A DNA stretch of 64,000 nucleotides from a virus (taxonomy: Duplodnaviria > Heunggongvirae > Uroviricota > Caudoviricetes): positions 1-64,000 of the IMG/VR virus record IMGVR_UViG_3300013105_000002; one strand, 5' to 3'. How positions within the stretch are numbered: position 1 is the first letter of the stretch; the number at the start of each line of letters is the position of its first letter. Shown in pieces: positions 13,241 to 37,623 of this stretch. The notes under the pieces are model-generated. The model searched no databases. It was not told the DNA's origin and saw only the letters and a list, made by a program, of their open reading frames with translations. The translations under genes were made by a program, and so were the position numbers.

Positions 13241-13246
13241 TGTGGT

Positions 13247-14133: not shown

Positions 14134-14168
14134 GTGTCCATCATCAGTTCCAAACCTAAGGAGCACAC

Positions 14169-14566: not shown

Positions 14567-15050
14567 TCTATACGGCAAGGAATCGTACTCACAGTCCAAG
14601 TGTATTTTCCTCGCTGGTCCCATCGAGGCTTGGTGGGACACTCCTGAGAATCCCAATATGTGGAATTCTCCTGAGGCGGTGGCGTATCGAGAGCATCGCA
14701 CAAAGGTGGCTGACGCACTGGTTGCTGAAGGCTTCCTTGTGTACCGCCCGTGGGGTGCGTTCCGTGGAGACTGGAATGAGAAGTTCCAAGGTGTCAATGA
14801 CTATGTGCTTCTGCGTTCAGATGCAGTCACAGAACTGACACCGCCGAACACACCAGCGGTCGGTACGCGTCATGAGGTTGGCCTAGCACTTCGTAACAAG
14901 ATTCCTGTCATCGGCTTCCCTCCCGTTCCACCGGAGCACTTTGATCGATTCATGGAGCATCACATCAAGTACACGATTGATGCAATCGACAGGTGGGCGG
15001 TGTACCGTCAGGAGGCTCTTGACAGGGGCGATCTGCCTGTGCTAGACTAA
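14559..15050 (+). CDS. nucleoside 2-deoxyribosyltransferase-like protein
   Basis: GGAGG + GTG 14559; IFLAGPIE motif typical of nucleoside deoxyribosyltransferase family. Confidence 0.55.
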   Translation: MDSLYGKESYSQSKCIFLAGPIEAWWDTPENPNMWNSPEAVAYREHRTKVADALVAEGFLVYRPWGAFRGDWNEKFQGVNDYVLLRSDAVTELTPPNTPAVGTRHEVGLALRNKIPVIGFPPVPPEHFDRFMEHHIKYTIDAIDRWAVYRQEALDRGDLPVLD

Positions 15051-15065
15051 TACAACTGAATAATT

Positions 15066-15136
15066 GGGATATAGATGTTGTGGCCGCATGTCACCTTGCC
15101 ATGGTGATCGCACGGGTTCGATTCCCGTATATCCCT
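15066..15136 (+). tRNA. tRNA-Gly (anticodon GCC)
   Basis: acceptor gggatat/atatccc, anticodon stem tcacc/ggtga loop ttgccat, T-arm acggg-ttcgatt-cccgt. Confidence 0.75.
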
Positions 15137-15138
15137 CT

Positions 15139-15210
15139 GAGTCCGAGCCGGAGGCATCAGGAGTTGCACTGTGACTGCAATTATCGTGGGTTCGAATCCC
15201 ACCGGACTCC
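15139..15210 (+). tRNA. tRNA-His (anticodon GTG)
   Basis: acceptor gagtccg/cggactc, anticodon stem ttgca/tgcaa loop ctgtgac, T-arm gtggg-ttcgaat-cccac. Confidence 0.7.
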
Positions 15211-15227
15211 CTCAATAAAGGAGAATC

Positions 15228-26390: not shown

Positions 26391-26445
26391 ATACCCCGGG
26401 GGTATGGTGTTTTCTATACTCTTCTTTGGTATACACTGGGGGTAT
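26391..26445 (+). repeat. two operator-type palindromes without promoter (ATACCCCGGGGGTAT 26391-26405; ATACACTGGGGGTAT 26431-26445)
   Basis: same ATACCC-N-GGGTAT family as downstream array. Confidence 0.6.
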
Positions 26446-26462
26446 ACACCTACCGGCGATAG

Positions 26463-26514
26463 ATACCCCGAAGGGTATCTATGGACTTGACACGTCTTTA
26501 CAGACTGATAGTCT
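26463..26514 (+). promoter_or_regulatory. operator + promoter P1 (leaderless gene 26521)
   Basis: op 26463-26478; -35 TTGACA 26487-26492; -10 TAGTCT 26509-26514; ATG 6 nt downstream. Confidence 0.6.
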
Positions 26515-26520
26515 TCTCTC

Positions 26521-27102
26521 ATGACAACAAACACCACGCCCCACACGAACCACATCCTTGCGGCATACCTGCGAGCATCCGAGGACGACCGTGCCTTTGG
26601 TATCGCTTGGTACCCCGCCGCTCGTGCCCTTGCTGAGAATCTTCTACCTGAGGACGTGAGCACCGCCGCAGGTGTTCTTGCTGCCATGTCTCCCATGACG
26701 TCATGGCCCGAGAACGTCAAGCGCGCGACTGTCGCCATCATGGGTGGCAAGGTCTCGCACACTGGCCCGAACGTTGACAAGGTTCTGCGCATCCTGTCCG
26801 GTGAGCACCCGCTCGACGTGCTGTCCGGTCCCAAGACTCGCGCGTTCTACCTCAACATCATGGGAATCGACAGTGACGAGACGGTCACTGTGGACAGACA
26901 CGCTATCGACGTGGCATGCGGTAATGTCCTCTCGGACTCCGACCGTGCCGGTGCCATCCGTGGCAAGGCAGGCTATGGTAAGGTCGCCGGTATGTACCGT
27001 GAGGCTGCAAGCGTTATCGGAATCACCCCGTGTGCCCTACAGGCCGTTGTTTGGGTGTACTGGCGGCGAAACGTTGCTCAGGCTTTCCACGGTGACGCGT
27101 GA
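26521..27102 (+). CDS. hypothetical protein
   Basis: 193-aa GC-rich ORF. Confidence 0.55.
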   Translation: MTTNTTPHTNHILAAYLRASEDDRAFGIAWYPAARALAENLLPEDVSTAAGVLAAMSPMTSWPENVKRATVAIMGGKVSHTGPNVDKVLRILSGEHPLDVLSGPKTRAFYLNIMGIDSDETVTVDRHAIDVACGNVLSDSDRAGAIRGKAGYGKVAGMYREAASVIGITPCALQAVVWVYWRRNVAQAFHGDA

Positions 27103-27234
27103 GGCTTGACACAAAAATCATTGCGGGGCTAGTGATCATGCTTGCCACTAGCCCCGTATGGTTTCCCATAGCGGTATTTTTCTACCTACTAGCACAGTGA
27201 GGTAGGTGGGCGCAAGCCCACCGGCCTTACATTT

Positions 27235-27305
27235 GTACCCCGAGGGTATTAGATACACCGGGGGTATGTGTAGGGCTTGACGCCCGGTAGGTACTCGGGT
27301 AATGT
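27235..27305 (+). promoter_or_regulatory. two operators + promoter P2 (drives ORF-less transcript)
   Basis: ops 27235-27249, 27253-27267; -35 TTGACG 27277-27282; -10 TAATGT 27300-27305. Confidence 0.55.
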
Positions 27306-27311
27306 TGTCCT

Positions 27312-27685
27312 TGTTGGAAGAGACCGAGGCACACAAGCGGTGAGAGTCCGTTATTCCAACGCACTACCGGAGTGGATAGCAAGTCGCTGCTTGGCTTGCA
27401 AGGACGAAACTCCACTAGGGTTGACTTTAAATCAGCCCCTTTGATTTGTGAATAGAGAGAGTCCACGACTCAGACACAAGCCTCTCATGGCGAGCCGTCA
27501 ATGATTTAGACACCACGCTACTAGTGACACGTTCCATGGAACACGTCCACGCCTCTGACGTTCTCTATTAAACGTTGTATCCGAATGCACGCATCCGTGA
27601 TAACATGACCAATGTCTCTCTCTAGGGTAGGTCTGATCAACCTACCGGCCCCGAGCGCAATGCATGGCGCTCGGGGTCTCATATT
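27312..27685 (+). ncRNA. candidate ~375-nt noncoding RNA (ncRNA-1)
   Basis: promoter P2 to strong terminator (ggccccgagcgc/gcgctcggggtc 27647-27678 + U tail); no ORF >11 aa; multiple hairpins incl. GNRA-looped stems. Confidence 0.5.
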
Positions 27686-27694
27686 GTCATCCAT

Positions 27695-27745
27695 ATACAC
27701 TGGGGGTATCTAGACTCTTGACATGAGCGCTGGTAGGCATAGACT
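27695..27745 (+). promoter_or_regulatory. operator + promoter P3
   Basis: op ATACACTGGGGGTAT 27695-27709; -35 TTGACA 27718-27723; -10 TAGACT 27740-27745. Confidence 0.55.
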
Positions 27746-27751
27746 GAGGAT

Positions 27752-27949
27752 ATGAAATCACCACGAAGAGCAATCATCTACAGCCACGGGCTACGCCCTG
27801 CATTTGACAAGCGCAAGTACAGCGATGACAAGAATCAGGCGCGGCGTGCTGCGAAGGGCGGTGTGCCTTGTGAGAAGTGTGGCAGGGTATACAAAGACCC
27901 CAACAGAAAGCACAACTCCGATCCCAAGAACAAGACGCCATGCCTTTGA
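27752..27949 (+). CDS. hypothetical basic protein
   Basis: 65 aa; CEKCG pair. Confidence 0.5.
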   Translation: MKSPRRAIIYSHGLRPAFDKRKYSDDKNQARRAAKGGVPCEKCGRVYKDPNRKHNSDPKNKTPCL

Positions 27950-27963
27950 GCATGGCCCCCTAT

Positions 27964-27993
27964 ATATCCCTAGGGTATGTCAGAGACTTGACA
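27964..27993 (+). promoter_or_regulatory. operator + -35 of promoter P4
   Basis: op ATATCCCTAGGGTAT 27964-27978; -35 TTGACA 27988-27993; -10 unclear. Confidence 0.4.
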
Positions 27994-28022
27994 GCCCTGA
28001 AGACACATGAGAGAGTATGCAT

Positions 28023-28178
28023 ATGAACAGGAACAAGCGGGCGCAGGCCCCCAAGCGAATCAACCGTCATGACTCTGCAATCGGTGACAAGCGCCGTGCG
28101 CGAAGTGGTCCGGTCATCCGAGGACAGCGTTTCGACAGGAACGATTTCCGCAACCAGAGCATGCGGGGTGAGTGGTGA
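28023..28178 (+). CDS. small basic protein (51 aa)
   Basis: ATG directly downstream of P4. Confidence 0.35.
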   Translation: MNRNKRAQAPKRINRHDSAIGDKRRARSGPVIRGQRFDRNDFRNQSMRGEW

Positions 28179-28336
28179 AGACTTTCGATCCTCTAGAGGT
28201 GACCCTCGTTTATGTCGATGTTCTTGGTACTGAGTACCGACAGAGTGCTGCCGACATTGTGGAAGTTGGAACCCTCATCGATCCTGACACCGGCGACGAT
28301 ATGGAACTCGTGCGAGTCGAAGTTCCCAACAACTAG
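28175..28336 (+). CDS. small acidic protein (53 aa)
   Basis: GTGA overlap; ends before next operator. Confidence 0.35.
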   Translation: MKTFDPLEVTLVYVDVLGTEYRQSAADIVEVGTLIDPDTGDDMELVRVEVPNN

Positions 28337-28366
28337 CAGATTGGCCCTTCGGGGTCAAGCCCCAAT

Positions 28367-28447
28367 ATACCCTGAGTGTATGTCTTGGAGGTATATACCC
28401 TAGGGGTACCAAACCGTATTGACACACCCCCGGCATCCCTGTAATGT
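28367..28447 (+). promoter_or_regulatory. two operators + promoter P5
   Basis: ops 28367-28381, 28395-28409; -35 TTGACA 28419-28424; -10 TAATGT 28442-28447. Confidence 0.55.
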
Positions 28448-28453
28448 TTGAGT

Positions 28454-28550
28454 TGTTGGAGAGAGCAACGGTGAACCAAAGAGTGTGCTTCAAGTCTGGC
28501 ACCGGATTGGGAAAGGGCACTCTCTCCAACTCAGAAAGTTTCTTAGCACA
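28454..28550 (+). ncRNA. structured RNA element (ncRNA-2 or long 5' leader of Lsr2-like gene)
   Basis: 5' TTGTTGGAGAGAG pairs with downstream CTCTCTCCAAC; 5' end paralogous to ncRNA-1; no ORF. Confidence 0.4.
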
Positions 28551-28555
28551 ATCGC

Positions 28556-28584
28556 TTGACACTCTGGTCTACATGGATTAGAGT
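28556..28584 (+). promoter_or_regulatory. promoter P6 (no operator) TTGACA-17-TAGAGT
   Basis: -35 28556-28561, -10 28579-28584; RBS GAAAGGA then ATG 28639. Confidence 0.5.
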
Positions 28585-28638
28585 ACGTAGTACCGGGAAA
28601 GAGACACACGGTCTCTCCCAAACGAAAGGACAACCATC

Positions 28639-29025
28639 ATGGCTTCCAAGCGCATCGCCAACCCGACCGAGGTCCGCACGTGGGCTGCCGCCAACCTCGC
28701 CACCATCGACGGGCTCCCCGAGGGCTACCGCCTCGGTGACCGGGGTCAGTTCCCGCCCGCCGTCATCACCGCCTTCAACAAGGCGCACAAGAACGTCAAG
28801 TACGTGCGTGGCGCGTTCGTCAACAAGACGGCGGTCAAGTTCACCCGCGTGACCGACAAGGGCCGCAAGGTGCCCGGTGTGGCTCACATCGACACCACGA
28901 AGGTCCGTGAGGCTGCCCGTGAGGCCGGTCTGGCGCTCCCGTCCAAGGGCCGTCTTCCGCAGGCCGTGAAGGTCGCCTACGCGCAGGGTCCGGACGCCCT
29001 GAAGGCGCTTGCCGCCACGGTCTGA
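28639..29025 (+). CDS. Lsr2-like DNA-binding protein with two tandem Lsr2-type C-terminal domains
   Basis: VRTWAAANL..LGDRGQFPPAVITAF and VREAAREAGLALPSKGRLPQAVKVAY resemble Lsr2 DBD (RGRIPADVIDAY). Confidence 0.65.
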   Translation: MASKRIANPTEVRTWAAANLATIDGLPEGYRLGDRGQFPPAVITAFNKAHKNVKYVRGAFVNKTAVKFTRVTDKGRKVPGVAHIDTTKVREAAREAGLALPSKGRLPQAVKVAYAQGPDALKALAATV

Positions 29026-29033
29026 AGGCCGCA

Positions 29034-29057
29034 GGGCCTCCCCTCCGGGGGAGGCCC
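29034..29057 (+). terminator. hairpin terminator
   Basis: gggcctcccc tcc ggggaggccc. Confidence 0.55.
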
Positions 29058-29075
29058 TAGCCTTTCGTCTATCAC

Positions 29076-29128
29076 ATACCCCAAGGGTATCCCATCGGAG
29101 TTGACAGGCTACTGTGAGCGTGTAGACT
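29076..29128 (+). promoter_or_regulatory. operator + promoter P7
   Basis: op ATACCCCAAGGGTAT 29076-29090; -35 TTGACA 29101-29106; -10 TAGACT 29123-29128. Confidence 0.6.
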
Positions 29129-29160
29129 GAACCTATCAACCCACGACATTGGAGGAACCA

Positions 29161-29586
29161 ATGAGCAAGCACTACCCCGGAACTCCCAAGGCATGGGCCG
29201 CCGAGCGCGGTCTCTGTGGCACGGGACGTGGACGCCCGCCCAAGGCTGCCATGGATGCCATTGCGGCTGCCATCGCTGACGGTTGGACGTTCGGCGGTGG
29301 GTCGGTGGTGGTGAACAAGTCCGCTGAGCCCACGGGGCCGGTGGTGGAGAAGCCCAAGGACGACAGCCCCAAGGGTGAGGCTGAAGGCGTGAACGTCTAC
29401 GCTGACGCGTTCTACCGCTATGACCGTGAGCAGAAATTCTACTATGAGCATGAGGGCAAGCGTCACGAGTGCTCTGGTCGCACGGCTTGCATGGGCTGTG
29501 GATACAGTCTCATTGGACACACGTGCAACGAAATGGTAGGCTTGACCAAGCACGGACAGAAAGTCATCAAGCCGCTGGGAGAGTGA
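29161..29586 (+). CDS. protein with N-terminal Lsr2-type DNA-binding motif and C-terminal Cys cluster
   Basis: RBS GGAGG; KAWAAERG..GRGRPPKAAMDAIAAA; C-terminal HECSGRTACMGCG. Confidence 0.55.
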   Translation: MSKHYPGTPKAWAAERGLCGTGRGRPPKAAMDAIAAAIADGWTFGGGSVVVNKSAEPTGPVVEKPKDDSPKGEAEGVNVYADAFYRYDREQKFYYEHEGKRHECSGRTACMGCGYSLIGHTCNEMVGLTKHGQKVIKPLGE

Positions 29587-29589
29587 CAT

Positions 29590-29862
29590 ATGGCACGCAT
29601 GAGCATTGAACAGAAACTCGCTGACAAGGTGGTGGATGCCACTCTGAGAGCAGACTTCGATGCGCCTCGGTTTGCCTACATCATGAACCGTTGTGGATGG
29701 AAGATTCAGGAAGTTCTGTTTCAGGTGGTGCTCGGGATGATCCGTCACTGGGCTATTGACCTAGAGACGGACAACACCAAGGGTGGAGCCGATGAGTATT
29801 ACCGGCTGACCATCAAGGCGAAAATCCTGCAGGATGCCATCGACCGTAACAAAATCGAGTGA
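29590..29862 (+). CDS. hypothetical protein
   Basis: 90-aa ORF. Confidence 0.5.
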   Translation: MARMSIEQKLADKVVDATLRADFDAPRFAYIMNRCGWKIQEVLFQVVLGMIRHWAIDLETDNTKGGADEYYRLTIKAKILQDAIDRNKIE

Positions 29863-29911
29863 GATTAGGGAGTCATCGTAAGAGGTGGCTCCCTACCTCA
29901 TTGGGGTATGC

Positions 29912-29990
29912 ATACCCTTGGGGTATTTGTATTGATACATACCCCGGGGGTATTGTCAGGGCTTGACGGATGACTCTGAGGTGATAGTCT
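29912..29990 (+). promoter_or_regulatory. operators + promoter P8 (leaderless)
   Basis: ops 29912-29926, 29939-29953 (plus inverted copy 29903-29917); -35 TTGACG 29963-29968; -10 TAGTCT 29985-29990; ATG 6 nt later. Confidence 0.6.
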
Positions 29991-29996
29991 TTAGCC

Positions 29997-30509
29997 ATGA
30001 ACCTCACAGACGCACAGATGCTCGCACGCACGGCTCTCGACGCCCACGGTCTCACCGACAAGGGTTGGCGAGTCGAGTGGGACAATGCCAAGAGGCGCAA
30101 CGGCTCTGCCTCATCCTCTGCTCGTGTCATCACCCTGTCGGCACCGCTGACGCACCTGAAGACACCTGAAGAGATGCGTCAGACCATTGGTCACGAAATC
30201 GCTCACGCCCTTGTTGGTACCCAGCACGGACACGGGCCGGTGTGGAAGGCCAAGATGCGGGAGTTGGGCCTAGTCGTGTCCACTACGGCAGTCCTCTCGG
30301 AAGAGACACGCGGCCAGATTGCCACGCTGAGGAACTACACCCTCACGTGCGTGGTGAACGGCAAGAGTCTCGGACACCTTGACAGGATCGTCAAGCAGCG
30401 CAAGGTCAGGCGCGGGGGCGGGTATGTCCTACGTACCTATGGCGCTCGTGTCTGCAAGTGCCACGGGGAGCCTGTCCTCTACAACGGCAAGTCATGGGAC
30501 GATATCTGA
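29997..30509 (+). CDS. SprT-like zinc metallopeptidase
   Basis: GHEIAHAL (HExxH) + downstream H/G; C-terminal CKCHG zinc ribbon. Confidence 0.7.
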   Translation: MNLTDAQMLARTALDAHGLTDKGWRVEWDNAKRRNGSASSSARVITLSAPLTHLKTPEEMRQTIGHEIAHALVGTQHGHGPVWKAKMRELGLVVSTTAVLSEETRGQIATLRNYTLTCVVNGKSLGHLDRIVKQRKVRRGGGYVLRTYGARVCKCHGEPVLYNGKSWDDI

Positions 30510-30538
30510 AAGGCAAGGCCCTACGGGGTCTAACCGTT

Positions 30539-30590
30539 ATACCCTGAGGGTAATTCCACCATTGACACCCGCGCCGGTAGGTGGTTGAAT
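30539..30590 (+). promoter_or_regulatory. operator + promoter P9
   Basis: op 30539-30553; -35 TTGACA 30562-30567; -10 TTGAAT 30585-30590. Confidence 0.5.
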
Positions 30591-30622
30591 AGCACTATCA
30601 ACCAAACGTCCTAGGAGGACAC

Positions 30623-30805
30623 ATGAAGACGGTAACTCTCTACTTCGTTGCACAGCCCGAGCCTGATGGCAGCACGCCGAACCCGAGCCTCTTCTACCTG
30701 AACGAAGACTACGACTTCGTGTCTCAGGAAGTTCCTCAGGGTGAGCGTGTCTACAGCGTCGGCGCGATCCTCATGGATGACACTGTGGAGGAAGTTGCCA
30801 ACTGA
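30623..30805 (+). CDS. hypothetical protein
   Basis: RBS AGGAGG; 60 aa. Confidence 0.5.
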   Translation: MKTVTLYFVAQPEPDGSTPNPSLFYLNEDYDFVSQEVPQGERVYSVGAILMDDTVEEVAN

Positions 30806-30825
30806 GCCCTTCGGGGTTTAGCCAC

Positions 30826-30875
30826 ATACCCTGAGGGTATGTCTCACTTGACAAGCGCCGGTGGATGCGTAGACT
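30826..30875 (+). promoter_or_regulatory. operator + promoter P10 (leaderless)
   Basis: op ATACCCTGAGGGTAT 30826-30840; -35 30848-30853; -10 TAGACT 30870-30875. Confidence 0.6.
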
Positions 30876-30881
30876 AGAGGC

Positions 30882-31097
30882 ATGGACATGGAAATCATTG
30901 ACACAGTACAGGCCCACACGTTGGAGCCGGGAGACACCATCGAGTACATCGATGACGAGGGACGCCGCTCACTTCAAGAAATCAAGAGCGCCGAAGACCT
31001 CGGAGACACCATCCGTGTGCAGTTGGAAGACTACGACGACGTAGACCTCTATGCTGATGGTGAGCAGAACATCTACGGATATCCTGCCGAAGACTGA
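30882..31097 (+). CDS. hypothetical acidic protein
   Basis: 71-aa ORF. Confidence 0.5.
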   Translation: MDMEIIDTVQAHTLEPGDTIEYIDDEGRRSLQEIKSAEDLGDTIRVQLEDYDDVDLYADGEQNIYGYPAED

Positions 31098-31162
31098 CAG
31101 GAACGCGGGGGAGTCGGAGAAATTCGGCTCCCCCAAACCTGTATCGTAAAGCCCATGAACAT

Positions 31163-31263
31163 TTCCCGAGGGTATCTACATACCCCAAGGGTATAGGATC
31201 ACACAAAACAAATACCCCATGAGGTATGGATGGGCTTGACAGGTCTCTGGGAACTGATAGTCT
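31163..31263 (+). promoter_or_regulatory. three operators + promoter P11 (leaderless)
   Basis: ops 31163-31175, 31180-31194, 31212-31227; -35 TTGACA 31236-31241; -10 TAGTCT 31258-31263. Confidence 0.6.
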
Positions 31264-31269
31264 TTACCT

Positions 31270-31635
31270 ATGAACGAACGAGACAAGCCGATGACCGGCG
31301 AGCACGCAGCAATCATCTTCGCGCAGGGCCTCACCGCCAAGTTCGCAGACAGCGAGTGGCCGTACAACCCTGAGTTCTCCGCTGATCTTTCGGGCAAGAA
31401 GTACATCCGAATCGTCAATGAGGGCAACCCTCACCCCGAGGACCAGACAACGAACCTGTACCGTCGTCAGCGCTCGTGCCACGCGTACGTGGACCGCGAG
31501 ACGGGCGAGGTGTACAAGTCCTCAGGATGGAAGGGTGGACCGGCCAAGGTCAACGGCAAGGCCGATGCACGATACCCCAACGTTTGGGAGGCTCTGGTCA
31601 AGGCTGACCGGAACGGAGGATACCTGTACAAGTAA
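31270..31635 (+). CDS. hypothetical protein
   Basis: 121-aa ORF. Confidence 0.55.
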   Translation: MNERDKPMTGEHAAIIFAQGLTAKFADSEWPYNPEFSADLSGKKYIRIVNEGNPHPEDQTTNLYRRQRSCHAYVDRETGEVYKSSGWKGGPAKVNGKADARYPNVWEALVKADRNGGYLYK

Positions 31636-31653
31636 CAGGTGTCAAGCAGGGAA

Positions 31654-31767
31654 ATACCCTTCGGGGTATTTTCTTGTTCTTACCCTATACCCTAGGGGTA
31701 TGCCTTGAAACGAAATACCCTTGGGGTATGGGATGGTGTTGACAGCCCTGCTCCCATGGTGTTTACT
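31654..31767 (+). promoter_or_regulatory. three operators + promoter P12 (leaderless)
   Basis: ops 31654-31669, 31687-31701, 31715-31729; -35 TTGACA 31739-31744; -10 TTTACT 31762-31767. Confidence 0.55.
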
Positions 31768-31773
31768 AGAGAT

Positions 31774-32037
31774 ATGAACAAGCAGACGCGCAAAGCGTAC
31801 CTCACTGACCTTGGTGCCCGTATCTACAATGCGGACACCTCCACCGAACTCATCGTGATCGCCACGGACATGGCAGATGCCGCGTCCATGGGTCGCTCGG
31901 AGACATGGAAGGGTGCTTGCACGATGGCAGGACGACGCACCCTCGCCAAGTTCAACATCGGTGTCCCGGTGCCATTCAAGGACGTTGGTGCCGTGGTCCA
32001 GCAAGGCTACGATGCCATGGTGGCAGCCAACAAGTAA
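31774..32037 (+). CDS. hypothetical protein
   Basis: ORF 31705 start overlaps promoter; ATG 31774 used. Confidence 0.5.
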   Translation: MNKQTRKAYLTDLGARIYNADTSTELIVIATDMADAASMGRSETWKGACTMAGRRTLAKFNIGVPVPFKDVGAVVQQGYDAMVAANK

Positions 32038-32042
32038 GCCCG

Positions 32043-32064
32043 CTAGGCCCCTCCGGGGGCCTAG
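32043..32064 (+). terminator. hairpin terminator
   Basis: ctaggcccc tccg ggggcctag. Confidence 0.5.
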
Positions 32065-32079
32065 CCTTATTAGCATGAG

Positions 32080-32131
32080 ATACACCGGGGGTATGTTCTA
32101 GGCTTGACACACACTACCAGACTGATAGTAT
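32080..32131 (+). promoter_or_regulatory. operator + promoter P13 (leaderless)
   Basis: op ATACACCGGGGGTAT 32080-32094; -35 32104-32109; -10 TAGTAT 32126-32131. Confidence 0.6.
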
Positions 32132-32137
32132 TTACCC

Positions 32138-32371
32138 ATGAGCCAAATGACATTCCACGAGCAGTTCGGTGAAGTTTCTGTCGCACAACTCCGTGCATAC
32201 AAGGCGCACAACGTCTCTCAGTCCGACCACGACTCCCTCGCCACGTTCTACTCCGAGGGCGGCCACGAGTCCATCACAAAGGCGGTGAAAGACCCACGCA
32301 ACCACGTGCCCGGAACGAGGTTGTTCTCGTGGCACACGTGGTACTCCAACACCGAGCGTTACAACTGGTGA
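32138..32371 (+). CDS. hypothetical protein
   Basis: 77-aa ORF. Confidence 0.5.
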   Translation: MSQMTFHEQFGEVSVAQLRAYKAHNVSQSDHDSLATFYSEGGHESITKAVKDPRNHVPGTRLFSWHTWYSNTERYNW

Positions 32372-32406
32372 ACACACCGGCCCTACGGGGTCCGTGTGTA
32401 TACCCC

Positions 32407-32458
32407 GGGGGTAATTAGAGTGTTGACCACCAGCGCCGGTAGGTGTAGAGTAAAGGTA
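32407..32458 (+). promoter_or_regulatory. operator + promoter P14 (drives ORF-less transcript)
   Basis: op 32407-32421; -35 TTGACC 32430-32435; -10 TAGAGT 32453-32458. Confidence 0.5.
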
Positions 32459-32464
32459 TTGAAG

Positions 32465-32606
32465 GGGATGGAAGGACGCAAGGTGCAAATCCCTGCTAGC
32501 AATTGAACCCTTCGACGCAAGACATGTATGTGACAGTGCATGCCATAGAGACTAGTCATCTCGCCGGGGCCTGAGCCTGACTAACTCAGGTCTCTTGCTT
32601 TTGCCA
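32465..32606 (+). ncRNA. candidate ~140-nt noncoding RNA (ncRNA-3)
   Basis: no + strand ORF; ends in hairpin cctgag...ctcagg + tctcttgcttttg. Confidence 0.4.
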
Positions 32607-32611
32607 TACAC

Positions 32612-32758
32612 ATACCCTAGGGGTAAATTCGGCTCCTAGAATCGCTTATCGTAAACGGTCTGTTCGCTATCCCCCAAGGGTGCACATACCCTCGTGGGAT
32701 TTGATATACCCTTGGGGTATGCCAGACAGGTTGACACGTCCCGGCATGTGAGTAGACT
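32612..32758 (+). promoter_or_regulatory. operators + promoter P15
   Basis: ops 32612-32626, 32686-32700, 32706-32720; -35 32731-32736; -10 TAGACT 32753-32758; leader with RBS GAGGAAA. Confidence 0.55.
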
Positions 32759-32795
32759 TGGACCATCAGCCAAACCGAGTAGTGAGGAAACTACA

Positions 32796-33065
32796 ATGGC
32801 ACGTCAACTCCGAGTCATCGCCCGCGAGATCGTGAAGGACTACGCAGACAAGGGCAAGCCGGTCACGCCGTTTGCCAAGCCGTACGTGGACGCGATGCTC
32901 ACGATGGACAGCGTGGCCGACACCTACGGAGCCGAGAGTGGCGAGTACGTCGTCCTCTACGGGCTGCACAACCTCTCCGGATGGCGAGGCGAGAAGGCAC
33001 GCGAGGTGAAGGCCGAACTGAAGGCTCTTGTCTCCGAGCATCGCAGGGCGAACCCGCGCCGGTGA
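32796..33065 (+). CDS. hypothetical protein
   Basis: ATG 32796 after RBS; 89 aa. Confidence 0.5.
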   Translation: MARQLRVIAREIVKDYADKGKPVTPFAKPYVDAMLTMDSVADTYGAESGEYVVLYGLHNLSGWRGEKAREVKAELKALVSEHRRANPRR

Positions 33066-33070
33066 GTGGA

Positions 33071-33090
33071 GGGGACTTCGGTCCCCTTTT
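33071..33090 (+). terminator. rho-independent terminator
   Basis: ggggac ttcg gtcccc tttt. Confidence 0.6.
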
Positions 33091-33104
33091 CTCATACCCT
33101 GCCA

Positions 33105-33156
33105 ATACCCCGAGGGTATAGTTTGGTGTTGACAGGTCGGGCGGTAGGAGTAGACT
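33105..33156 (+). promoter_or_regulatory. operator + promoter P16 (leaderless)
   Basis: op ATACCCCGAGGGTAT 33105-33119; -35 33129-33134; -10 TAGACT 33151-33156. Confidence 0.6.
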
Positions 33157-33162
33157 GAGAAC

Positions 33163-33375
33163 ATGAAAACGATCAATGGATGCGCAGTCATCGCCCACCG
33201 TCCCTACGGCAACACCCTTCCGTCTGAGGGTTTCGTGATCCTCGCAGTCAAGACGCTCGGTGACTCTTACGAGTACATCACTGCTGTTGTCTCCACGCTC
33301 GATGACAGGGAGTGGTTCTGGGGTCACTACATCACCTCGCTAGAGGAAGCCACGTCCGACTACTTCTCTCGCTGA
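33163..33375 (+). CDS. hypothetical protein
   Basis: 70-aa ORF. Confidence 0.5.
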   Translation: MKTINGCAVIAHRPYGNTLPSEGFVILAVKTLGDSYEYITAVVSTLDDREWFWGHYITSLEEATSDYFSR

Positions 33376-33405
33376 GAGGGGAGGCCCCACGGGGTCTTTC
33401 CATAT

Positions 33406-33457
33406 ATACCCTGAGGGTATGTCAACGCATTGACAGCCCTCCAATCCTTGATAGGAT
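33406..33457 (+). promoter_or_regulatory. operator + promoter P17 (leaderless)
   Basis: op 33406-33420; -35 33430-33435; -10 TAGGAT 33452-33457. Confidence 0.55.
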
Positions 33458-33463
33458 GTAGTC

Positions 33464-33631
33464 ATGTACTACGACATGGACGACCACCGTTGCTTCGACT
33501 GTGATGGGCGCTACTGCCCACCGGGCCAGTGCCTCCGTACCGAGACCTCCGTGTGGGTCGTGGGTCACGGTTGGACCGACCCCGAGACTGCCAAGGGCTT
33601 TGAGGCTCTGGGAAGGACGGTGCAGTGGTGA
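33464..33631 (+). CDS. small Cys-rich protein (55 aa)
   Basis: CFDCDGRYCPPGQC; below track cutoff. Confidence 0.4.
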   Translation: MYYDMDDHRCFDCDGRYCPPGQCLRTETSVWVVGHGWTDPETAKGFEALGRTVQW

Positions 33632-33649
33632 GGCTTCGGCCTTACACAT

Positions 33650-33701
33650 ATCCCCTAAGGGTATGTCTAGGTGTTGACACCTGACCTGTAGGGTGTAGAC
33701 T
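33650..33701 (+). promoter_or_regulatory. operator + promoter P18
   Basis: op ATCCCCTAAGGGTAT 33650-33664; -35 33674-33679; -10 TAGACT 33696-33701. Confidence 0.55.
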
Positions 33702-33708
33702 TAGGGAC

Positions 33709-33918
33709 ATGAAGACGATCACAGTGACCATGACCGGCGAGGCTTTCGAGTCCTACAGCGTGGACGGGGCCTACTTCCCCGAGTTCAAGAACGACGAGAG
33801 CGGCGAGTGGGATGCCATTCCTGCCGTCTTCGTCGGACGCCCCATCATGCACCGTGGACAGGTGGGAGACGCAACGATCCTCTACGGGCTCGACGTTCGG
33901 AAGGTGACAATGCAGTAA
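33709..33918 (+). CDS. hypothetical protein
   Basis: 69-aa ORF. Confidence 0.5.
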   Translation: MKTITVTMTGEAFESYSVDGAYFPEFKNDESGEWDAIPAVFVGRPIMHRGQVGDATILYGLDVRKVTMQ

Positions 33919-33950
33919 AGGGCAGGCCCCTCCGGGGGTCACTCCCATAT

Positions 33951-34003
33951 ATACCCTCGGGGTAAGTCTGAGACTTGACATGCATGCCCTAGGGGTACAT
34001 AAT
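33951..34003 (+). promoter_or_regulatory. operator + promoter P19 (leaderless); half-operator inside spacer
   Basis: op 33951-33965; -35 33975-33980; -10 CATAAT 33998-34003. Confidence 0.5.
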
Positions 34004-34009
34004 TGGAAC

Positions 34010-34213
34010 ATGAACACGATCCGAGACCTCATCCTCACCGCCAACGGTGGCAGTATGCACACGGCCACCCTGAACACGCTCACCATGCTTGTGTTCGCGG
34101 TCCTCTTCATCGCTGCCGGTGTTGCTTGCGCCTACGTCGTGGCAGCCCTCACGGCACAGCACAAGGCTCACATGCACACCGACAAGGTGACCGTCATCAC
34201 CGACGCACAGTGA
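34010..34213 (+). CDS. small membrane protein
   Basis: ATG 34010; one TM helix. Confidence 0.5.
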   Translation: MNTIRDLILTANGGSMHTATLNTLTMLVFAVLFIAAGVACAYVVAALTAQHKAHMHTDKVTVITDAQ

Positions 34214-34229
34214 CCCCGGAAGGGGCTAT

Positions 34230-34281
34230 ATACCCTTAGGGTATGTTTGAGGTTTGACACAATGCCCCAAACTGATATGCT
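34230..34281 (+). promoter_or_regulatory. operator + promoter P20
   Basis: op ATACCCTTAGGGTAT 34230-34244; -35 34254-34259; -10 TATGCT 34276-34281. Confidence 0.55.
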
Positions 34282-34309
34282 TGTCCTACCAACCACGGAA
34301 GGGGACACA

Positions 34310-34516
34310 ATGTCTCGCAAGGATTACGAAGCGCTCGCGGCAGTCATCGCGGGTGAGGTGGCATGTGCGGCAGGTAACAAGGACAAACTGCGCACGTCCT
34401 CCAACATCGCTCGGAGCATGGCTGACGTGTTCCACCGTGGAAACGAGCGTTTCGACCGTGTGCGCTTTTACAAGGCTTGCGGACTGGACATGACGGGCGG
34501 TTTCCCCGACGTGTGA
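34310..34516 (+). CDS. hypothetical protein
   Basis: RBS GGAAGGGGA + ATG 34310. Confidence 0.5.
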   Translation: MSRKDYEALAAVIAGEVACAAGNKDKLRTSSNIARSMADVFHRGNERFDRVRFYKACGLDMTGGFPDV

Positions 34517-34521
34517 GAGCG

Positions 34522-34545
34522 TGGCCCCTACGGGGGCCATTGCTT
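34522..34545 (+). terminator. rho-independent terminator
   Basis: tggcccc tacg ggggcca + ttgctttt. Confidence 0.6.
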
Positions 34546-34556
34546 TTACCTAGCAT

Positions 34557-34608
34557 ATACCCTCGGGGTATATATAGGCTTGACAGTGCACCTAGGGTGT
34601 GATTGAAT
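34557..34608 (+). promoter_or_regulatory. operator + promoter P21
   Basis: op ATACCCTCGGGGTAT 34557-34571; -35 34580-34585; -10 TTGAAT 34603-34608. Confidence 0.55.
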
Positions 34609-34644
34609 TGTCTTCTCAACCAGAACACCTCCCAAGGAGACACC

Positions 34645-34785
34645 ATGATCGTCGAAATCCGCAACAACGGTCTCATCATCGACTACGTGGTAATGCCTAA
34701 CTTCCGAGCGGCTGTCATGTTCACCCAGAGATTCAACCGAGTCTCCACAAACAAGGGTTTCACCCAGAGGGCGGTGATCGCCTGA
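34645..34785 (+). CDS. hypothetical protein (46 aa)
   Basis: RBS AAGGAGA + ATG 34645. Confidence 0.4.
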   Translation: MIVEIRNNGLIIDYVVMPNFRAAVMFTQRFNRVSTNKGFTQRAVIA

Positions 34786-34806
34786 GCCCTTCGGGGCTTT
34801 CCCCAT

Positions 34807-34858
34807 ATACACTCGGGGTATATCAATGGCTTGACACGAGGCCGGTATTTGATATGCT
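34807..34858 (+). promoter_or_regulatory. operator + promoter P22 (drives ORF-less transcript)
   Basis: op ATACACTCGGGGTAT 34807-34821; -35 34831-34836; -10 TATGCT 34853-34858. Confidence 0.55.
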
Positions 34859-34864
34859 TGTTAT

Positions 34865-34968
34865 ATGAGGTCGGAGGGAGAGCGGACCAAAAAAGTCTCA
34901 CCGTCAGAGAAGACGCAAATCGCACAGTGAGTCTAGGCTGCAAGGGTCTAGGCTCACTTGTTTGTCTA
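34865..34968 (+). ncRNA. candidate ~105-nt noncoding RNA (ncRNA-4)
   Basis: no ORF; 3' hairpin gtgagtctaggc...ctaggctcac 34927-34957 + TTGTTTG. Confidence 0.45.
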
Positions 34969-34972
34969 TAGA

Positions 34973-35023
34973 ATACCCTAGGGGTATACAAGTGGCTTGA
35001 CACATGCCGCCGATCTGATAGAG
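34973..35023 (+). promoter_or_regulatory. operator + promoter P23 (leaderless)
   Basis: op ATACCCTAGGGTAT 34973-34986; -35 34996-35001; -10 TAGAGT 35018-35023. Confidence 0.55.
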
Positions 35024-35029
35024 TTCTCA

Positions 35030-35113
35030 CATGGGAATCATCATCGTGTCACTGCTCGCAGCAATCTTTTGGCGCATCGCCATCAGCCCGATCATCGACA
35101 GTTTCAACAAGTA
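35030..35113 (+). CDS. tiny hydrophobic peptide (27 aa)
   Basis: ATG 6 nt after -10; followed by strong terminator. Confidence 0.25.
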
Positions 35114-35120
35114 GGGCGTG

Positions 35121-35148
35121 AAAGGCCCGGAGAAATCCGGGCCTTTTG
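35121..35148 (+). terminator. rho-independent terminator
   Basis: aaggcccgga gaaa tccgggcctt + ttgcg. Confidence 0.65.
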
Positions 35149-35175
35149 CGTGTCATCGTAAAAGGCCCAATTGGT

Positions 35176-35190
35176 ATACCCCAAGGGTAC
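35176..35190 (+). repeat. orphan operator copy ATACCCCAAGGGTAC
   Basis: no -35 downstream; sits before bidirectional terminator. Confidence 0.5.
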
Positions 35191-35206
35191 AAAACGGGCA
35201 TGAGAA

Positions 35207-35235
35207 GACCCTAGGTGCGCCGCTCACCTAGGGTC
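35207..35235. terminator. bidirectional terminator (perfect 11-bp stem)
   Basis: gaccctaggtg cgccgct cacctagggtc between convergent + and - genes. Confidence 0.6.
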
Positions 35236-35245
35236 TCTCTGGGTC

Positions 35246-35398
35246 TCAGGCCATGGACACCTCACGCTTCCACGTGGAGCGCTCACGGCGCTTGGCGATC
35301 CGTCGTGCCATCTTACGGGCGCTGGGCGCGTCACCGCAGCAAGAGCAGTCACGACCACCGGGGCCGTAGGGGCAGGACTTGCCAATCATGCGAGCCAT
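35246..35398 (-). CDS. small basic Cys-rich protein (50 aa), only minus-strand gene in the early array
   Basis: MARMIGKSCPYGPGGRDCSCCGD...RRIAKRRERSTWKR; own promoter. Confidence 0.45.
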   Translation of the reverse strand: MARMIGKSCPYGPGGRDCSCCGDAPSARKMARRIAKRRERSTWKREVSMA

Positions 35399-35437
35399 GA
35401 TTTTCTCTCTCTGTAGTTGTTTTTTCTTGCTGGGATA

Positions 35438-35467
35438 AACATATGACAGATGGCCGGTGGTGTCAAG
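35438..35467 (-). promoter_or_regulatory. minus-strand promoter CTTGACA-17-TATGTT
   Basis: revcomp of 35461-35467 = -35; revcomp of 35438-35443 = -10; divergent from P25. Confidence 0.5.
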
Positions 35468-35475
35468 CCGATCCA

Positions 35476-35555
35476 ATACCCCAAGGGTAAATCATCAGAC
35501 AGATACCCCTAGGGTATGTTTTTGGCTTGACGATGTTTCCGCATTCCCGTAGTGT
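35476..35555 (+). promoter_or_regulatory. two operators + promoter P25
   Basis: ops 35476-35490, 35503-35517; -35 TTGACG 35527-35532; -10 TAGTGT 35550-35555. Confidence 0.5.
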
Positions 35556-35601
35556 TTCTCTTGTCAGGAGGAAACGCCTCCCCCACACAAAAGGATTTGA
35601 A

Positions 35602-35895
35602 ATGTCGCTCTCCCTCGCCGGAACCAAGTCCACGGTTGTCTCGCCCGCCTCGCACGGCATCGACAACTACGGCCCCGAGGTGCAGGCAATCACCTTCAAG
35701 TACAACGGGGTCGCCTACACGATCAACCGTCGTGGCAACTCCAACGTCAAGGGCTTCCACTCCTTCCGGAACAACACGTACACGGTCACCAACGGCACCG
35801 ACCGTGTGTCGAACATGATCGTCAACCGTTTCGACTTCGTGTCCATCCTCTACACTGACGGTCGAATCGAGTCGAACGACTACACCGCTCGATGA
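35602..35895 (+). CDS. hypothetical protein
   Basis: RBS AAAGGA + ATG 35602; 97 aa. Confidence 0.5.
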   Translation: MSLSLAGTKSTVVSPASHGIDNYGPEVQAITFKYNGVAYTINRRGNSNVKGFHSFRNNTYTVTNGTDRVSNMIVNRFDFVSILYTDGRIESNDYTAR

Positions 35896-35900
35896 GAGGC

Positions 35901-35918
35901 AGGCCCCTTCGGGGGCCT
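35901..35918 (+). terminator. hairpin terminator
   Basis: aggcccc ttcg ggggcct. Confidence 0.55.
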
Positions 35919-35940
35919 AGCCTTTCGCCCATGACATACC

Positions 35941-35955
35941 CTCGGGGTATGTAGT
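35941..35955 (+). repeat. operator copy ATACCCTCGGGGTAT (weak promoter downstream)
   Basis: -35-like TTGTGT 35964-35969 only. Confidence 0.4.
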
Positions 35956-35993
35956 CTATTGTGTTACTGTCCGGTAGGGTATAGGGTGGTCAC

Positions 35994-36155
35994 ATGACCA
36001 AATACAAGTATGAGATTTTCCACGCTGTCAGTGGCGGCTTTTTCACGGGTCACCTTCACACGGTGTACTCCAACTCCAACGATGCCAACCTGTGGTGCGA
36101 GACGTTCGAACGTCAGGGCTACACGGGCCTCTACATGATCCGCAGGGAGGTCTAG
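35994..36155 (+). CDS. hypothetical protein (53 aa)
   Basis: + strand ORF; overlapping minus-strand ORF 35964-36239 judged spurious. Confidence 0.4.
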   Translation: MTKYKYEIFHAVSGGFFTGHLHTVYSNSNDANLWCETFERQGYTGLYMIRREV

Positions 36156-36183
36156 CACAAAGACCCTTCGGGGTCCATTAACA

Positions 36184-36236
36184 ATTACCCTCGGGGTATG
36201 TGTAGGGCTTGACATGATCCCCAGAACTGATAAACT
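36184..36236 (+). promoter_or_regulatory. operator + promoter P26 (leaderless)
   Basis: op 36184-36199; -35 36209-36214; -10 TAAACT 36231-36236. Confidence 0.55.
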
Positions 36237-36242
36237 CATGCC

Positions 36243-36461
36243 ATGAACGAAAACGAGATCACCCGCATCGTGGCCGACGCTCTGCGTGAGGCTTACGCCA
36301 TCAACACCGCTCAGTTCAAGGACGAGAAGGTGGAGCGTGAGACCGTGGACAGCGTGCTGTATGACGTTGCCTACAACATCGCTCAGGAGGTATGGCCCAC
36401 GCGCAGCCCTGAGTCTCCGGTCATGCCAGACGAGTGGTTGGAGGCGATCAAGGGTCGCTGA
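36243..36461 (+). CDS. hypothetical protein
   Basis: 72-aa ORF. Confidence 0.5.
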   Translation: MNENEITRIVADALREAYAINTAQFKDEKVERETVDSVLYDVAYNIAQEVWPTRSPESPVMPDEWLEAIKGR

Positions 36462-36466
36462 GGATA

Positions 36467-36487
36467 GGCTCCCACGGGAGCCTTTTC
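36467..36487 (+). terminator. rho-independent terminator
   Basis: ggctccc ac gggagcc + ttttcc. Confidence 0.6.
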
Positions 36488-36501
36488 CTTTACCCTACCG
36501 C

Positions 36502-36554
36502 ATACCCTAGGGGTATATATGGGGCTTGACATGGAGTCGGGCGGCAGGTAATGT
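36502..36554 (+). promoter_or_regulatory. operator + promoter P27
   Basis: op ATACCCTAGGGGTAT 36502-36516; -35 36526-36531; -10 TAATGT 36549-36554. Confidence 0.55.
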
Positions 36555-36589
36555 TCTTCTTGTCAGAACATCGATGAAAGGAAACTGAC

Positions 36590-36736
36590 ATGTACGAGCA
36601 CCCCGACCACGGCATCATGACTCTGGAAGAAGTTTGGATGACCGACGCTGGTGTGAAGTACGGTCGATTCGTGACCGTCAAGTGGGGAACGTCCATCAAC
36701 ATGCCCATCTGCATGGTGCACAAGTTGCCATCATGA
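36590..36736 (+). CDS. hypothetical protein (48 aa)
   Basis: RBS AAAGGA + ATG 36590. Confidence 0.4.
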   Translation: MYEHPDHGIMTLEEVWMTDAGVKYGRFVTVKWGTSINMPICMVHKLPS

Positions 36737-36753
36737 TGTAAAGGAAATCCGGT

Positions 36754-36778
36754 CAGCCCTTCGGGGTTGGCTGTTTTT
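36754..36778 (+). terminator. rho-independent terminator
   Basis: cagccc ttcg gggttg + ctgttttt. Confidence 0.6.
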
Positions 36779-36790
36779 CCGGTCAAGCCT

Positions 36791-36843
36791 ATACCCTTGG
36801 GGTATATCAGTACGCTTGACATGCCCCGATTTTCTGATTAGGC
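36791..36843 (+). promoter_or_regulatory. operator + promoter P28
   Basis: op ATACCCTTGGGGTAT 36791-36805; -35 36816-36821; weak -10 TTAGGC 36838-36843. Confidence 0.45.
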
Positions 36844-36881
36844 TGGGGCTACGCCCAAGCAACACCGACTAAGGAGACACC

Positions 36882-37151
36882 GTGAACGTCACCCCGAAGA
36901 CCGCCGCTCGCCAGATCGTCCTCGCCCGTGCGGAGCGTGCTGCAAAGCCCGTTTACACGTCCGAGACGGGCGTGGTGCGTCCGGTTCGCGTGGAGGCCGC
37001 TCCCATCGTGGAGGACGACCCGCACTGCTTCGTTTGTGGTCGGCACACGGATCACTTCGCAGAGCACGACGACATGGTGGAGGCTGGCACGGCCACCTAC
37101 GGCGAGGACGGGAGTGTCTACCCTGTCCCGTGGAACTTCATCCTCGGGTGA
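36882..37151 (+). CDS. hypothetical protein
   Basis: RBS AAGGAGA + GTG 36882; CFVCG..H pair. Confidence 0.5.
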   Translation: MNVTPKTAARQIVLARAERAAKPVYTSETGVVRPVRVEAAPIVEDDPHCFVCGRHTDHFAEHDDMVEAGTATYGEDGSVYPVPWNFILG

Positions 37152-37156
37152 GGCGA

Positions 37157-37178
37157 GGGGCCGAAAGGCCCCTTTCTT
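37157..37178 (+). terminator. rho-independent terminator
   Basis: ggggcc gaaa ggcccc + tttctt. Confidence 0.65.
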
Positions 37179-37190
37179 CATGTGTGTGAC

Positions 37191-37243
37191 ATACCCTCGG
37201 GGTATCCCAAAGTATTGACAAAAGCGCCGGTAGCAAATAGGCT
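37191..37243 (+). promoter_or_regulatory. operator + promoter P29
   Basis: op ATACCCTCGGGGTAT 37191-37205; -35 37215-37220; -10 TAGGCT 37238-37243. Confidence 0.55.
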
Positions 37244-37278
37244 ATGCGTAGCAAGCCAAACAGAAGAGAGAAGGAACA

Positions 37279-37491
37279 ATGTCTTTCCTTGCAGAAGCAC
37301 ATCAGGAATGGCACACGGTTCATGGACAGGTCGTTTGTCCTCTGGATTGTGGAATCGGAGAGGGTCAGGACGACTACGATCACGAGCCCATGACCGAAGA
37401 AGAGGAAATCGAACTTCAAGCATGGCGAGCACGACAGGAAGCGATGGATTCCACTGATGATCCCGCTCCTTGGGAGGTTGCCCCGTTTTGA
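37279..37491 (+). CDS. hypothetical acidic protein
   Basis: RBS AGAAGGA + ATG 37279; 70 aa. Confidence 0.5.
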   Translation: MSFLAEAHQEWHTVHGQVVCPLDCGIGEGQDDYDHEPMTEEEEIELQAWRARQEAMDSTDDPAPWEVAPF

Positions 37492-37550
37492 GAAGAAGGC
37501 CCGAAGAAATTCGGGTCTTTTTTCTTTTTATCGTAAGCGACCATCATGAC

Positions 37551-37623
37551 ATACCCCCGGGGGAATTCGGGTTGTTTTGGGCTCTATCGTAAATGAGCCT
37601 TTTGATATACCCCCGGGGGATAT
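37551..37623 (+). repeat. two variant operator copies (ATACCCCCGGGGGAAT 37551-37566; ATACCCCCGGGGGATAT 37607-37623) abutting the DnaA-box cluster
   Basis: each preceded by ATCGTAA(A/G) motif. Confidence 0.5.

Follow-up and report, generated by a model that had tools for sequence, protein, structure and literature searches.

The DNA between positions 34,865 and 34,965 of the window (the whole stretch of 64,000 nucleotides that was analysed) probably carries a real gene for a non-coding small RNA, with a promoter and a terminator of its own. As a phage-encoded small RNA it belongs to a known kind, within which it forms a new family; it matched no Rfam, Pfam or PHROG family. The pattern of change among its relatives indicates that the nucleotide sequence, and not a protein, is kept by selection. 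In any specific mechanism for the RNA we place far less confidence, well under half of that which we place in the gene. A preliminary description had proposed a discrete ncRNA of about 100 nt at this place. The unit's own promoter and terminator, an invariant body, covarying arms, the lack of a conserved frame and the inversion of the unit in one relative (L031) argue for that proposal, with the correction that the stretch is not literally ORF-less.

From what kind of phage does the window come? It looks like part of a large uncultured actinobacteriophage, and the source phage is a distant relative of the Streptomyces cluster BE phages (~133 kb), with whose ribonucleotide reductase that of the window shares 57.7% identity. 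At the nucleotide level the window has no match among deposited phages. Its G+C content is ~52%, and it holds seven tRNA genes (Leu ×3, Thr ×2, Gly, His) at 1572–15211, upstream of the early array, a set consistent with a BE-like large actinophage. Soil and rhizosphere metagenomes hold identical or near-identical contigs, and one protein cluster extends to a 131 kb contig.

The small RNA unit lies inside an array of short units at ~26.3–37.7 kb, comprising roughly 25 early-type transcription units. Each array unit opens with the palindrome TACCCnnnGGGTA, of which there are 79 strand-matches in the window against 0.8 expected, and 10 nt 3' of it stands a near-consensus promoter, TTGACA-16/17-TAnnnT. 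Fifteen window promoters have the palindrome. Between 32 and 38 kb we counted 13 promoter-like sites, against 3.3 in shuffles; promoter-like and terminator-like sites alike are 3–4 times commoner there than in shuffled sequence. About 39 copies of TACCCnnnGGGTA fall at 26392–37620 (for example 34231–34243, 34558–34570 and 34974–34986), 10 nt 5' of TTGACA promoters. In the distant relative L023, TTCCCnnnGGGAA replaces TACCCnnnGGGTA at the same position, which suggests that the regulator and its sites changed specificity together; L031 and L041 show neither motif clearly.

Twelve genes of the array, conserved ORFs of 27–193 aa, are predicted to be leaderless, the ATG following the −10 hexamer by 7 nt (once by 8 nt). 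This spacing is unusually uniform among the 12 predicted mRNAs.

Predicted leaderless gene starts: 26521, 27752, 29997, 30882, 31270, 32138, 33163, 33464, 33709, 34010, 35031, 36243.

The unit itself and its borders are made up as follows.

34808–34820, unstranded: upstream palindrome TACACTCGGGGTA, one mismatch to the TACCCnnnGGGTA ‘operator’, 10 nt 5' of the −35 box as in other units.
34831–34858, plus strand: promoter P22, with −35 TTGACA (34831–34836), a 16-nt spacer and extended −10 TGaTATGCT (34850–34858; hexamer TATGCT 34853–34858).
34865–34965, plus strand: predicted small RNA, ~95–101 nt, from the inferred +1 A (34865) to the U-tract.
34865–34929, plus strand: body, 65 nt identical in lineages A and B, its first 51 nt identical at 50 of 51 positions in lineage D.
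34926–34965, plus strand: predicted intrinsic terminator, a 14-bp stem with apex GGCU-GCAA(G)-GGUC (34926–34958), then TGTTTGT (34959–34965).
34974–34986, unstranded: palindrome TACCCTAGGGGTA of the next unit, whose promoter (34997–35024) precedes a leaderless 27-aa gene (35031–35114).

The promoter was correctly recognized in the preliminary description as TTGACA-16-TATGCT. It is near-consensus, with the features of a sigma-70-type promoter (10/12 matches), and we find in addition an extended-10 TG. A string said to be shared by P22 and the promoter P20 is likewise real: the 12-mer TGATATGCTTGT occurs twice in the 64-kb window, at 34273–34284 (P20) and 34850–34861 (P22), where 0.01 is expected. 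In the relative L024 the same −10 module, common to P20 and P22, drives a different, leaderless gene; the module is thus a recurring promoter variant of this phage group. The geometry of the promoter and its distance from the unit are the same in all six lineages in which the unit was found, including those where the promoter sequence is unrelated.

What marks the two ends of the RNA? The start was placed from the −10 spacing common to the 12 leaderless genes together with the sharp onset of conservation at 34865. The 3' end was placed from the predicted terminator, a hairpin followed by a U-rich tract, with the pairing kept in relatives. A covariance model built on the RNA so delimited recovers all the lineages. 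The 104-nt stretch folds better than its shuffles (z = −2.2). A hairpin had indeed been described in front of the next operator, as 10 bp at 34927–34957; its existence stands, and its size is revised to 14 bp with a 5-nt loop at 34926–34958. The T-rich tail claimed directly before that operator is present as TGTTTGT, after which comes the TACCCnnnGGGTA palindrome at 34974–34986.

How widely does the unit occur? It is absent from the deposited phages, IMG/VR contigs and bacterial genomes searched. Megablast and blastn of 33–37 kb against 50,697 phage records returned nothing that matches the unit. Exact-pattern scans of IMG/VR gave 0 matches for the hairpin and 0 for core plus apex, the core-plus-apex scan of bacterial genomes also gave 0, the operator–promoter pattern gave single chance matches only in IMG/VR, and two metagenome pattern scans brought nothing new. 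One candidate relative, L028, was discarded as an unrelated chance match. The relatives were instead reached by walking from neighbouring proteins, after which the unit was placed in their contigs by nucleotide profiles and the covariance model. In all it was found in six lineages, that of the window and five from metagenome contigs; some of these roughly six are related to each other.

Lineage A: the window and L001–L006; reference.
Lineage B: L012–L015, L018–L020, L022 and L024–L026; an extra gene before the unit.
Lineage C: L023; distant, covariance model R1 E = 0.009.
Lineage D: L031; unit on the opposite strand.
Lineage E: L029 and L030.
Lineage F: L042 and L043; shares the 5' ~32 nt only, then has a longer 3' domain.

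The median identity of window proteins is 86% to those of L024, 56% to those of L029 and 47–50% to those of L031, L042 and L023. For the lineage D phage the protein identity is ~50%, with a maximum of 59.5%.

Against this background the unit is conserved to a striking degree. Between A and B the body shows 0/65 differences and the immediate flanks 29–38/~136 (Fisher p 1e-7 to 6e-6). Conservation sets in exactly at the A of the ATG and ends at the hairpin base, and the 3–4 bases just before the ATG differ (ttat, ctc, tcc). Between A and D hardly any relationship is left upstream, where 34/57 positions differ, but the body has 1/51 differences over its first 51 nt and 7/15 over the 15 nt after them. 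Nowhere else do the window and the 20-kb L031 locus share so long a near-exact stretch as this block of 51 nt. Three segments are invariant across A, B, D and E: the core, AATCGC and the hairpin apex GGCTGCAAGG(G)TC.

34901–34915, plus strand: core CCGTCAGAGAAGACG, invariant in A, B, D and E, which can form the small hairpin CGUC-AGAGAA-GACG.

The terminator behaves differently from the body. Its 5' arm reads AGTGAGTCTAGGCT in A, TGGGGATTGGCT in B, ATGGCTCTAGGCT in D, ATGGTCTTAGGCT in E and TGGGGATCGGC in C, and pairing is kept in all five. Since the arms differ and yet still pair, we conclude that the unit has diverged for a long time under structural constraint and was not recently transferred. 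The automatic alignments (A1, A2) misregister the terminator 3' arm in D and E, so that pair counts understate the pairing, and the helices were instead read lineage by lineage. The body gives no covariation because it is invariant where sampling is best.

Is the unit autonomous? Its neighbours differ among A, B, C, D and E, and in every lineage it has its own near-consensus promoter and its own terminator, although the promoters of the lineages are not all homologous. In lineage D the unit is inverted, stands behind an unrelated promoter and lies tail-to-tail with a convergent gene. From the varied neighbours, the private promoter and terminator and this inversion we conclude that the unit is autonomous.

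The minimum free energy (MFE) and consensus (RNAalifold) folds share three elements: a 5' hairpin whose stem GGUC/GACC closes a G-rich loop of 12 nt, the 4-bp hairpin CGUC-AGAGAA-GACG, and the terminator. The elements of the 5' domain are these.

34869–34888, plus strand: 5' hairpin S1, GGUC (34869–34872) with GACC (34885–34888) around the G-rich loop GGAGGGAGAGCG (34873–34884), in the MFE and RNAalifold folds.
34889–34902, plus strand: A-run AAAAAAG (34889–34895) and S2 3' strand UCUCACC (34896–34902), with a proposed pairing to GGGAGA (34876–34881).

The tail that follows the A-run probably pairs with the loop of S1, and S1 and S2 would then form an H-type pseudoknot with the A-run as third loop. 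S1 is kept or extended through paired insertions, GGGaUC/GACCC in E and AAGGUC/GACCUU in C. In F the 3 nt between the helices are deleted and the bulged A is lost, which leaves GGGAGG/UCUCCC, a helix that is itself the MFE structure and gains a new U-A pair. S2 reads GGUGG/UCACC in E. In C it reads GCCGGG/CUCGGC, a complete change of sequence; the third loop there is A-rich, and the first contains an additional hairpin. Compared with shuffled tails, the loop-by-tail duplex of S2 gives p = 0.034 (A), 0.002 (F), 0.036 (C) and 0.35 (E), and non-cognate pairs do equally well, because all the loops are G-rich and all the tails CU-rich. On this evidence the pseudoknot is moderately supported. Rfam gave no match at E≤1 in 30–40 kb or in the loci of four relatives; with the unit alone, preQ1 families included, it gave noise only (E 0.2–2.7, far below gathering score).

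H-type pseudoknots with an A-rich third loop are exemplified by the preQ1-I riboswitch aptamer, in which the elements run S1 5', L1, S2 5', S1 3', A-rich L3, S2 3'. The unit has the same order of elements and a similar size (~38 nt). It differs in not being a gene leader and in having no Rfam score, and its pseudoknot is a proposal from the pairing described above.

What might the RNA do? Host polymerase of the sigma-70 type would start at A34865 from P22, and the TACCCnnnGGGTA palindrome 10 nt 5' of the −35 box would presumably be the site of a regulator. Transcription would end at the hairpin and U-tract (34926–34965), where structure and covariation are observed. The transcript would fold in three parts: a 5' domain, probably the H-type pseudoknot; the invariant hairpin CGUC-AGAGAA-GACG; and the terminator with its invariant apex GGCU-GCAA-GGUC. 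The product would be the RNA itself, not a peptide, and would act in trans in early infection. Our best guess is that it does so through its invariant exposed segments, which would base-pair with a transcript of the host or the phage or else attach to a protein. An independent unit with conserved exposed sequence is what a trans-acting sRNA would present, and at the level of sequence that is what we find. Conserved complementarity to a target transcript was not found in the window, to which this search was confined; the best complementarity there extends over 11 nt, the length most often reached by shuffled queries. One candidate target, the start of the 97-aa gene (35606–35616, codons 2–5), was rejected: its 11-nt match is no better than those of shuffles and is lost in L012. 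A scan of 185,579 bacterial species with a 16-mer of the core gave at least 120 matches, which are scattered over unrelated taxa and so are uninformative on host or target.

The RNA might not be antisense at all. As a structured decoy or aptamer it would, as a stand-alone H-type pseudoknot together with its invariant hairpins, bind a host protein or a small molecule early in infection. We consider this unlikely. Were it true, it would explain the fixed first 51 nt in phages whose proteins are at ~50% identity, and an anti-defence or take-over role would be possible.

Might the unit encode a peptide instead? The stretch had been called free of ORFs. This was an oversight, in that an ATG at 34865–34867, beginning at the seventh nucleotide after the −10 hexamer, opens a short frame.

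34865–34930, plus strand: 21-codon frame MRSEGERTKKVSPSEKTQIAQ, starting at the predicted +1 AUG, with its stop TGA (34928–34930) within the hairpin 5' arm.

The unit would then be a leaderless mRNA for the charged 21-residue micropeptide MRSEGERTKKVSPSEKTQIAQ, a reading we hold to be unlikely. The 7-nt spacing from the −10 is that of the 12 adjacent leaderless genes, the 27-aa gene next door among them. The AUG is kept in four of the six lineages (A, B, D, F) though the 3–6 bases before it vary, and the peptides of A and F have a common MRS.G..TKK.SP-like beginning. In mycobacteria a 5' AUG is enough for translation (PMC4633059). On the other hand, the start codon is AUA in E and absent in C, and the frame closes before the U-tract in A (21 codons) and F (16 codons) alone. 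B has TGG in place of the stop, and the frame crosses the terminator and the next operator (44–83 codons); in D it runs for 65 codons. The terminated transcripts of B and D would therefore be non-stop mRNAs.

The substitutions point the same way. Against one synonymous change stand G5V (L019) and K10N, Q18I and Q21V (D), so that change is mostly non-synonymous, and the 62 invariant nt contain no synonymous variation. Between A and E, in the part where the frame is preserved, unchanged blocks lie beside codons altered at 2–3 positions. Insertions of 4 nt and 2 nt in E put the invariant 15-mer out of register with any upstream start, and in F the loss of single bases from the A-run and from CUCACC shifts the register over conserved nucleotides. 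Pfam and PHROG searches with the peptides found no match. Start, stop and register are thus not conserved, change is not mainly synonymous, and in two lineages the frame is absent. The 21-codon frame is probably not a functional product.

In the leaderless small ORFs of actinobacteria described by Shell et al. 2015 (PMC4633059) we see a likeness to the unit, which also has a predicted 5' AUG, a short 21-codon frame and leaderless neighbours. The difference is that the frame here is unconserved in start, stop and register, whereas the nucleotides are conserved. Since an AUG at the 5' end of a transcript suffices for leaderless translation in actinobacteria (PMC4633059), and A, B, D and F have one at the predicted +1, the RNA of these four would probably be visited by ribosomes, and a short peptide or a translation-dependent effect may result.

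At 262–513 of L022 the AUG frame passes the terminator and the promoter that follows and joins the frame of the 27-aa gene, making 83 codons, probably by coincidence. A minus-strand ORF at 34683–35030 (115 aa) was rejected as a gene: it spans operators and promoters and is broken between A and B by a 1-nt indel in the hairpin loop. Also rejected was a dnaX-type −1 frameshift cassette (AGGGAG, A AAA AAG, hairpin), whose heptamer is not in phase with the AUG frame and is not conserved: D has AAAAAC there, F five A, and E seven A plus C.

Could the unit be a cis-acting leader, a riboswitch or attenuator whose 5' pseudoknot senses a ligand, or the translation of the micro-ORF, and gates read-through of the terminator? 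A transcriptional OFF switch would have its parts in this order too: first a promoter, then a structured 5' domain whose pseudoknot loop is A-rich, then an intrinsic terminator and finally the next gene. Moreover the stop of the 21-codon frame lies within the terminator 5' arm, so that a terminating ribosome would melt the stem. Yet the downstream gene varies by lineage and always has its own operator and promoter, and in L031 the inverted unit faces the 3' end of a convergent gene, which leaves nothing downstream to control. No alternative anti-terminator pairing is evident, and no Rfam riboswitch matched, even with the unit alone. The L031 inversion, the separate downstream promoters and the Rfam result lead us to reject the leader, which we regard as very improbable.

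Just as improbable is that the conservation acts at the level of DNA (a protein-binding site, an origin-like element or a recombination module) or reflects recent horizontal exchange, the transcript being incidental: the genomes are mosaic, A and B share exact blocks of 60–138 nt elsewhere and the body has the short inverted repeats GGTC/GACC and CGTC/GACG, but the conserved block runs exactly from the predicted +1 to the terminator base between flanks that within 10–60 nt are 24–60% different, and for a recent exchange to have produced this both breakpoints would have had to fall precisely at these edges in several lineages; the terminator arms, too, have changed in a compensatory way, which implies a long divergence, and every lineage, even where these parts are non-homologous, has a promoter and a terminator.

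Other elements of the region deserve mention in their own right. A second class of promoter, TTGAC(A/G)-17-TA(A/G)TGT, occurs at 27277–27320, 28419–28460, 35527–35570 and 36526–36566, with the T-rich starts tgtccttgttgga, ttgagttgttgga, ttctcttgtcagga and tcttcttgtcaga. The blocks 27299–27320 and 28439–28460 are exact even in L031, whose proteins are ~50% identical. At 27306–27690 lies a unit of ~390 nt without a convincing ORF (nothing >34 codons), and L024 is identical over the 138 nt of the block 27183–27320, which takes in the unit's operator, promoter and first 15 nt. At 28448–28545 a ~95-nt RNA, also without a convincing ORF, has ends that form a long helix, GAGTTGTTGGAGAGAG ... CTCTCTCCAACTC, followed by AGAAAGTTTCTT. 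The 5' leader of the 97-aa gene contains the hairpin CAGGAGG-AAACG-CCTCCCC (35565–35584), with compensatory changes in relatives (GGGAGG/CCTCCC, GGGGGG/CCTCCC).

Directly 3' of the unit, the leaderless gene at 35031–35114 encodes the 27-aa hydrophobic peptide MGIIIVSLLAAIFWRIAISPIIDSFNK and is called in JGI annotations. It is present in lineage A and L022; L012 and L024 have other genes in its place. On the minus strand, 35246–35398 holds a small Cys-rich gene of 50 aa, MARMIGKSCPYGPGGRDCSCCGD..., the only part of 33–37 kb similar (~80% at the nucleotide level) to deposited phages, namely the Streptomyces phages BillNye, Circinus and Byblos.

To which known systems may the small RNA be compared? 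DicF, IpeX and the PAK_P3 sRNAs are trans-acting small RNAs encoded by phages or prophages. Like the unit, they are stand-alone cassettes of ~50–150 nt running from promoter to terminator, with a 3' terminator hairpin and conserved exposed segments. They have no sequence relationship to it, and for the unit no target or seed pairing was found. No Hfq is known in the likely host group.

The closest precedents are the small RNAs from Pleft of the cluster A mycobacteriophages, which are abundant, stable and early, and of unknown function (PMC5712189). Both they and the unit are actinobacteriophage elements with an early promoter of the sigma-70 type and no conserved ORF, in a region of small early genes. 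The Pleft RNAs arise within a stretch of ~500 bp at the genome end, and experiments have shown them to be expressed and toxic, whereas the unit is a predicted compact 100-nt cassette with its own terminator. Megablast and blastn found no match of the unit region among the 50,697 phage records that would link it to Pleft (L5/D29 right end).

Actinobacteriophage small RNAs are almost unexplored territory, and none of the few described has an assigned function. The present cassette is compact, its promoter and terminator are clear, and it is found in at least six lineages and conserved far above the proteins nearby; it is therefore a well-defined object for synthesis, for expression in Streptomyces and for the probing of partners. 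Two lessons extend beyond it. A lone AUG at the 5' end of a transcript is no evidence for a coding gene, and the ‘ORF-less’ gaps in the early gene arrays of phages can harbour RNA genes under selection.
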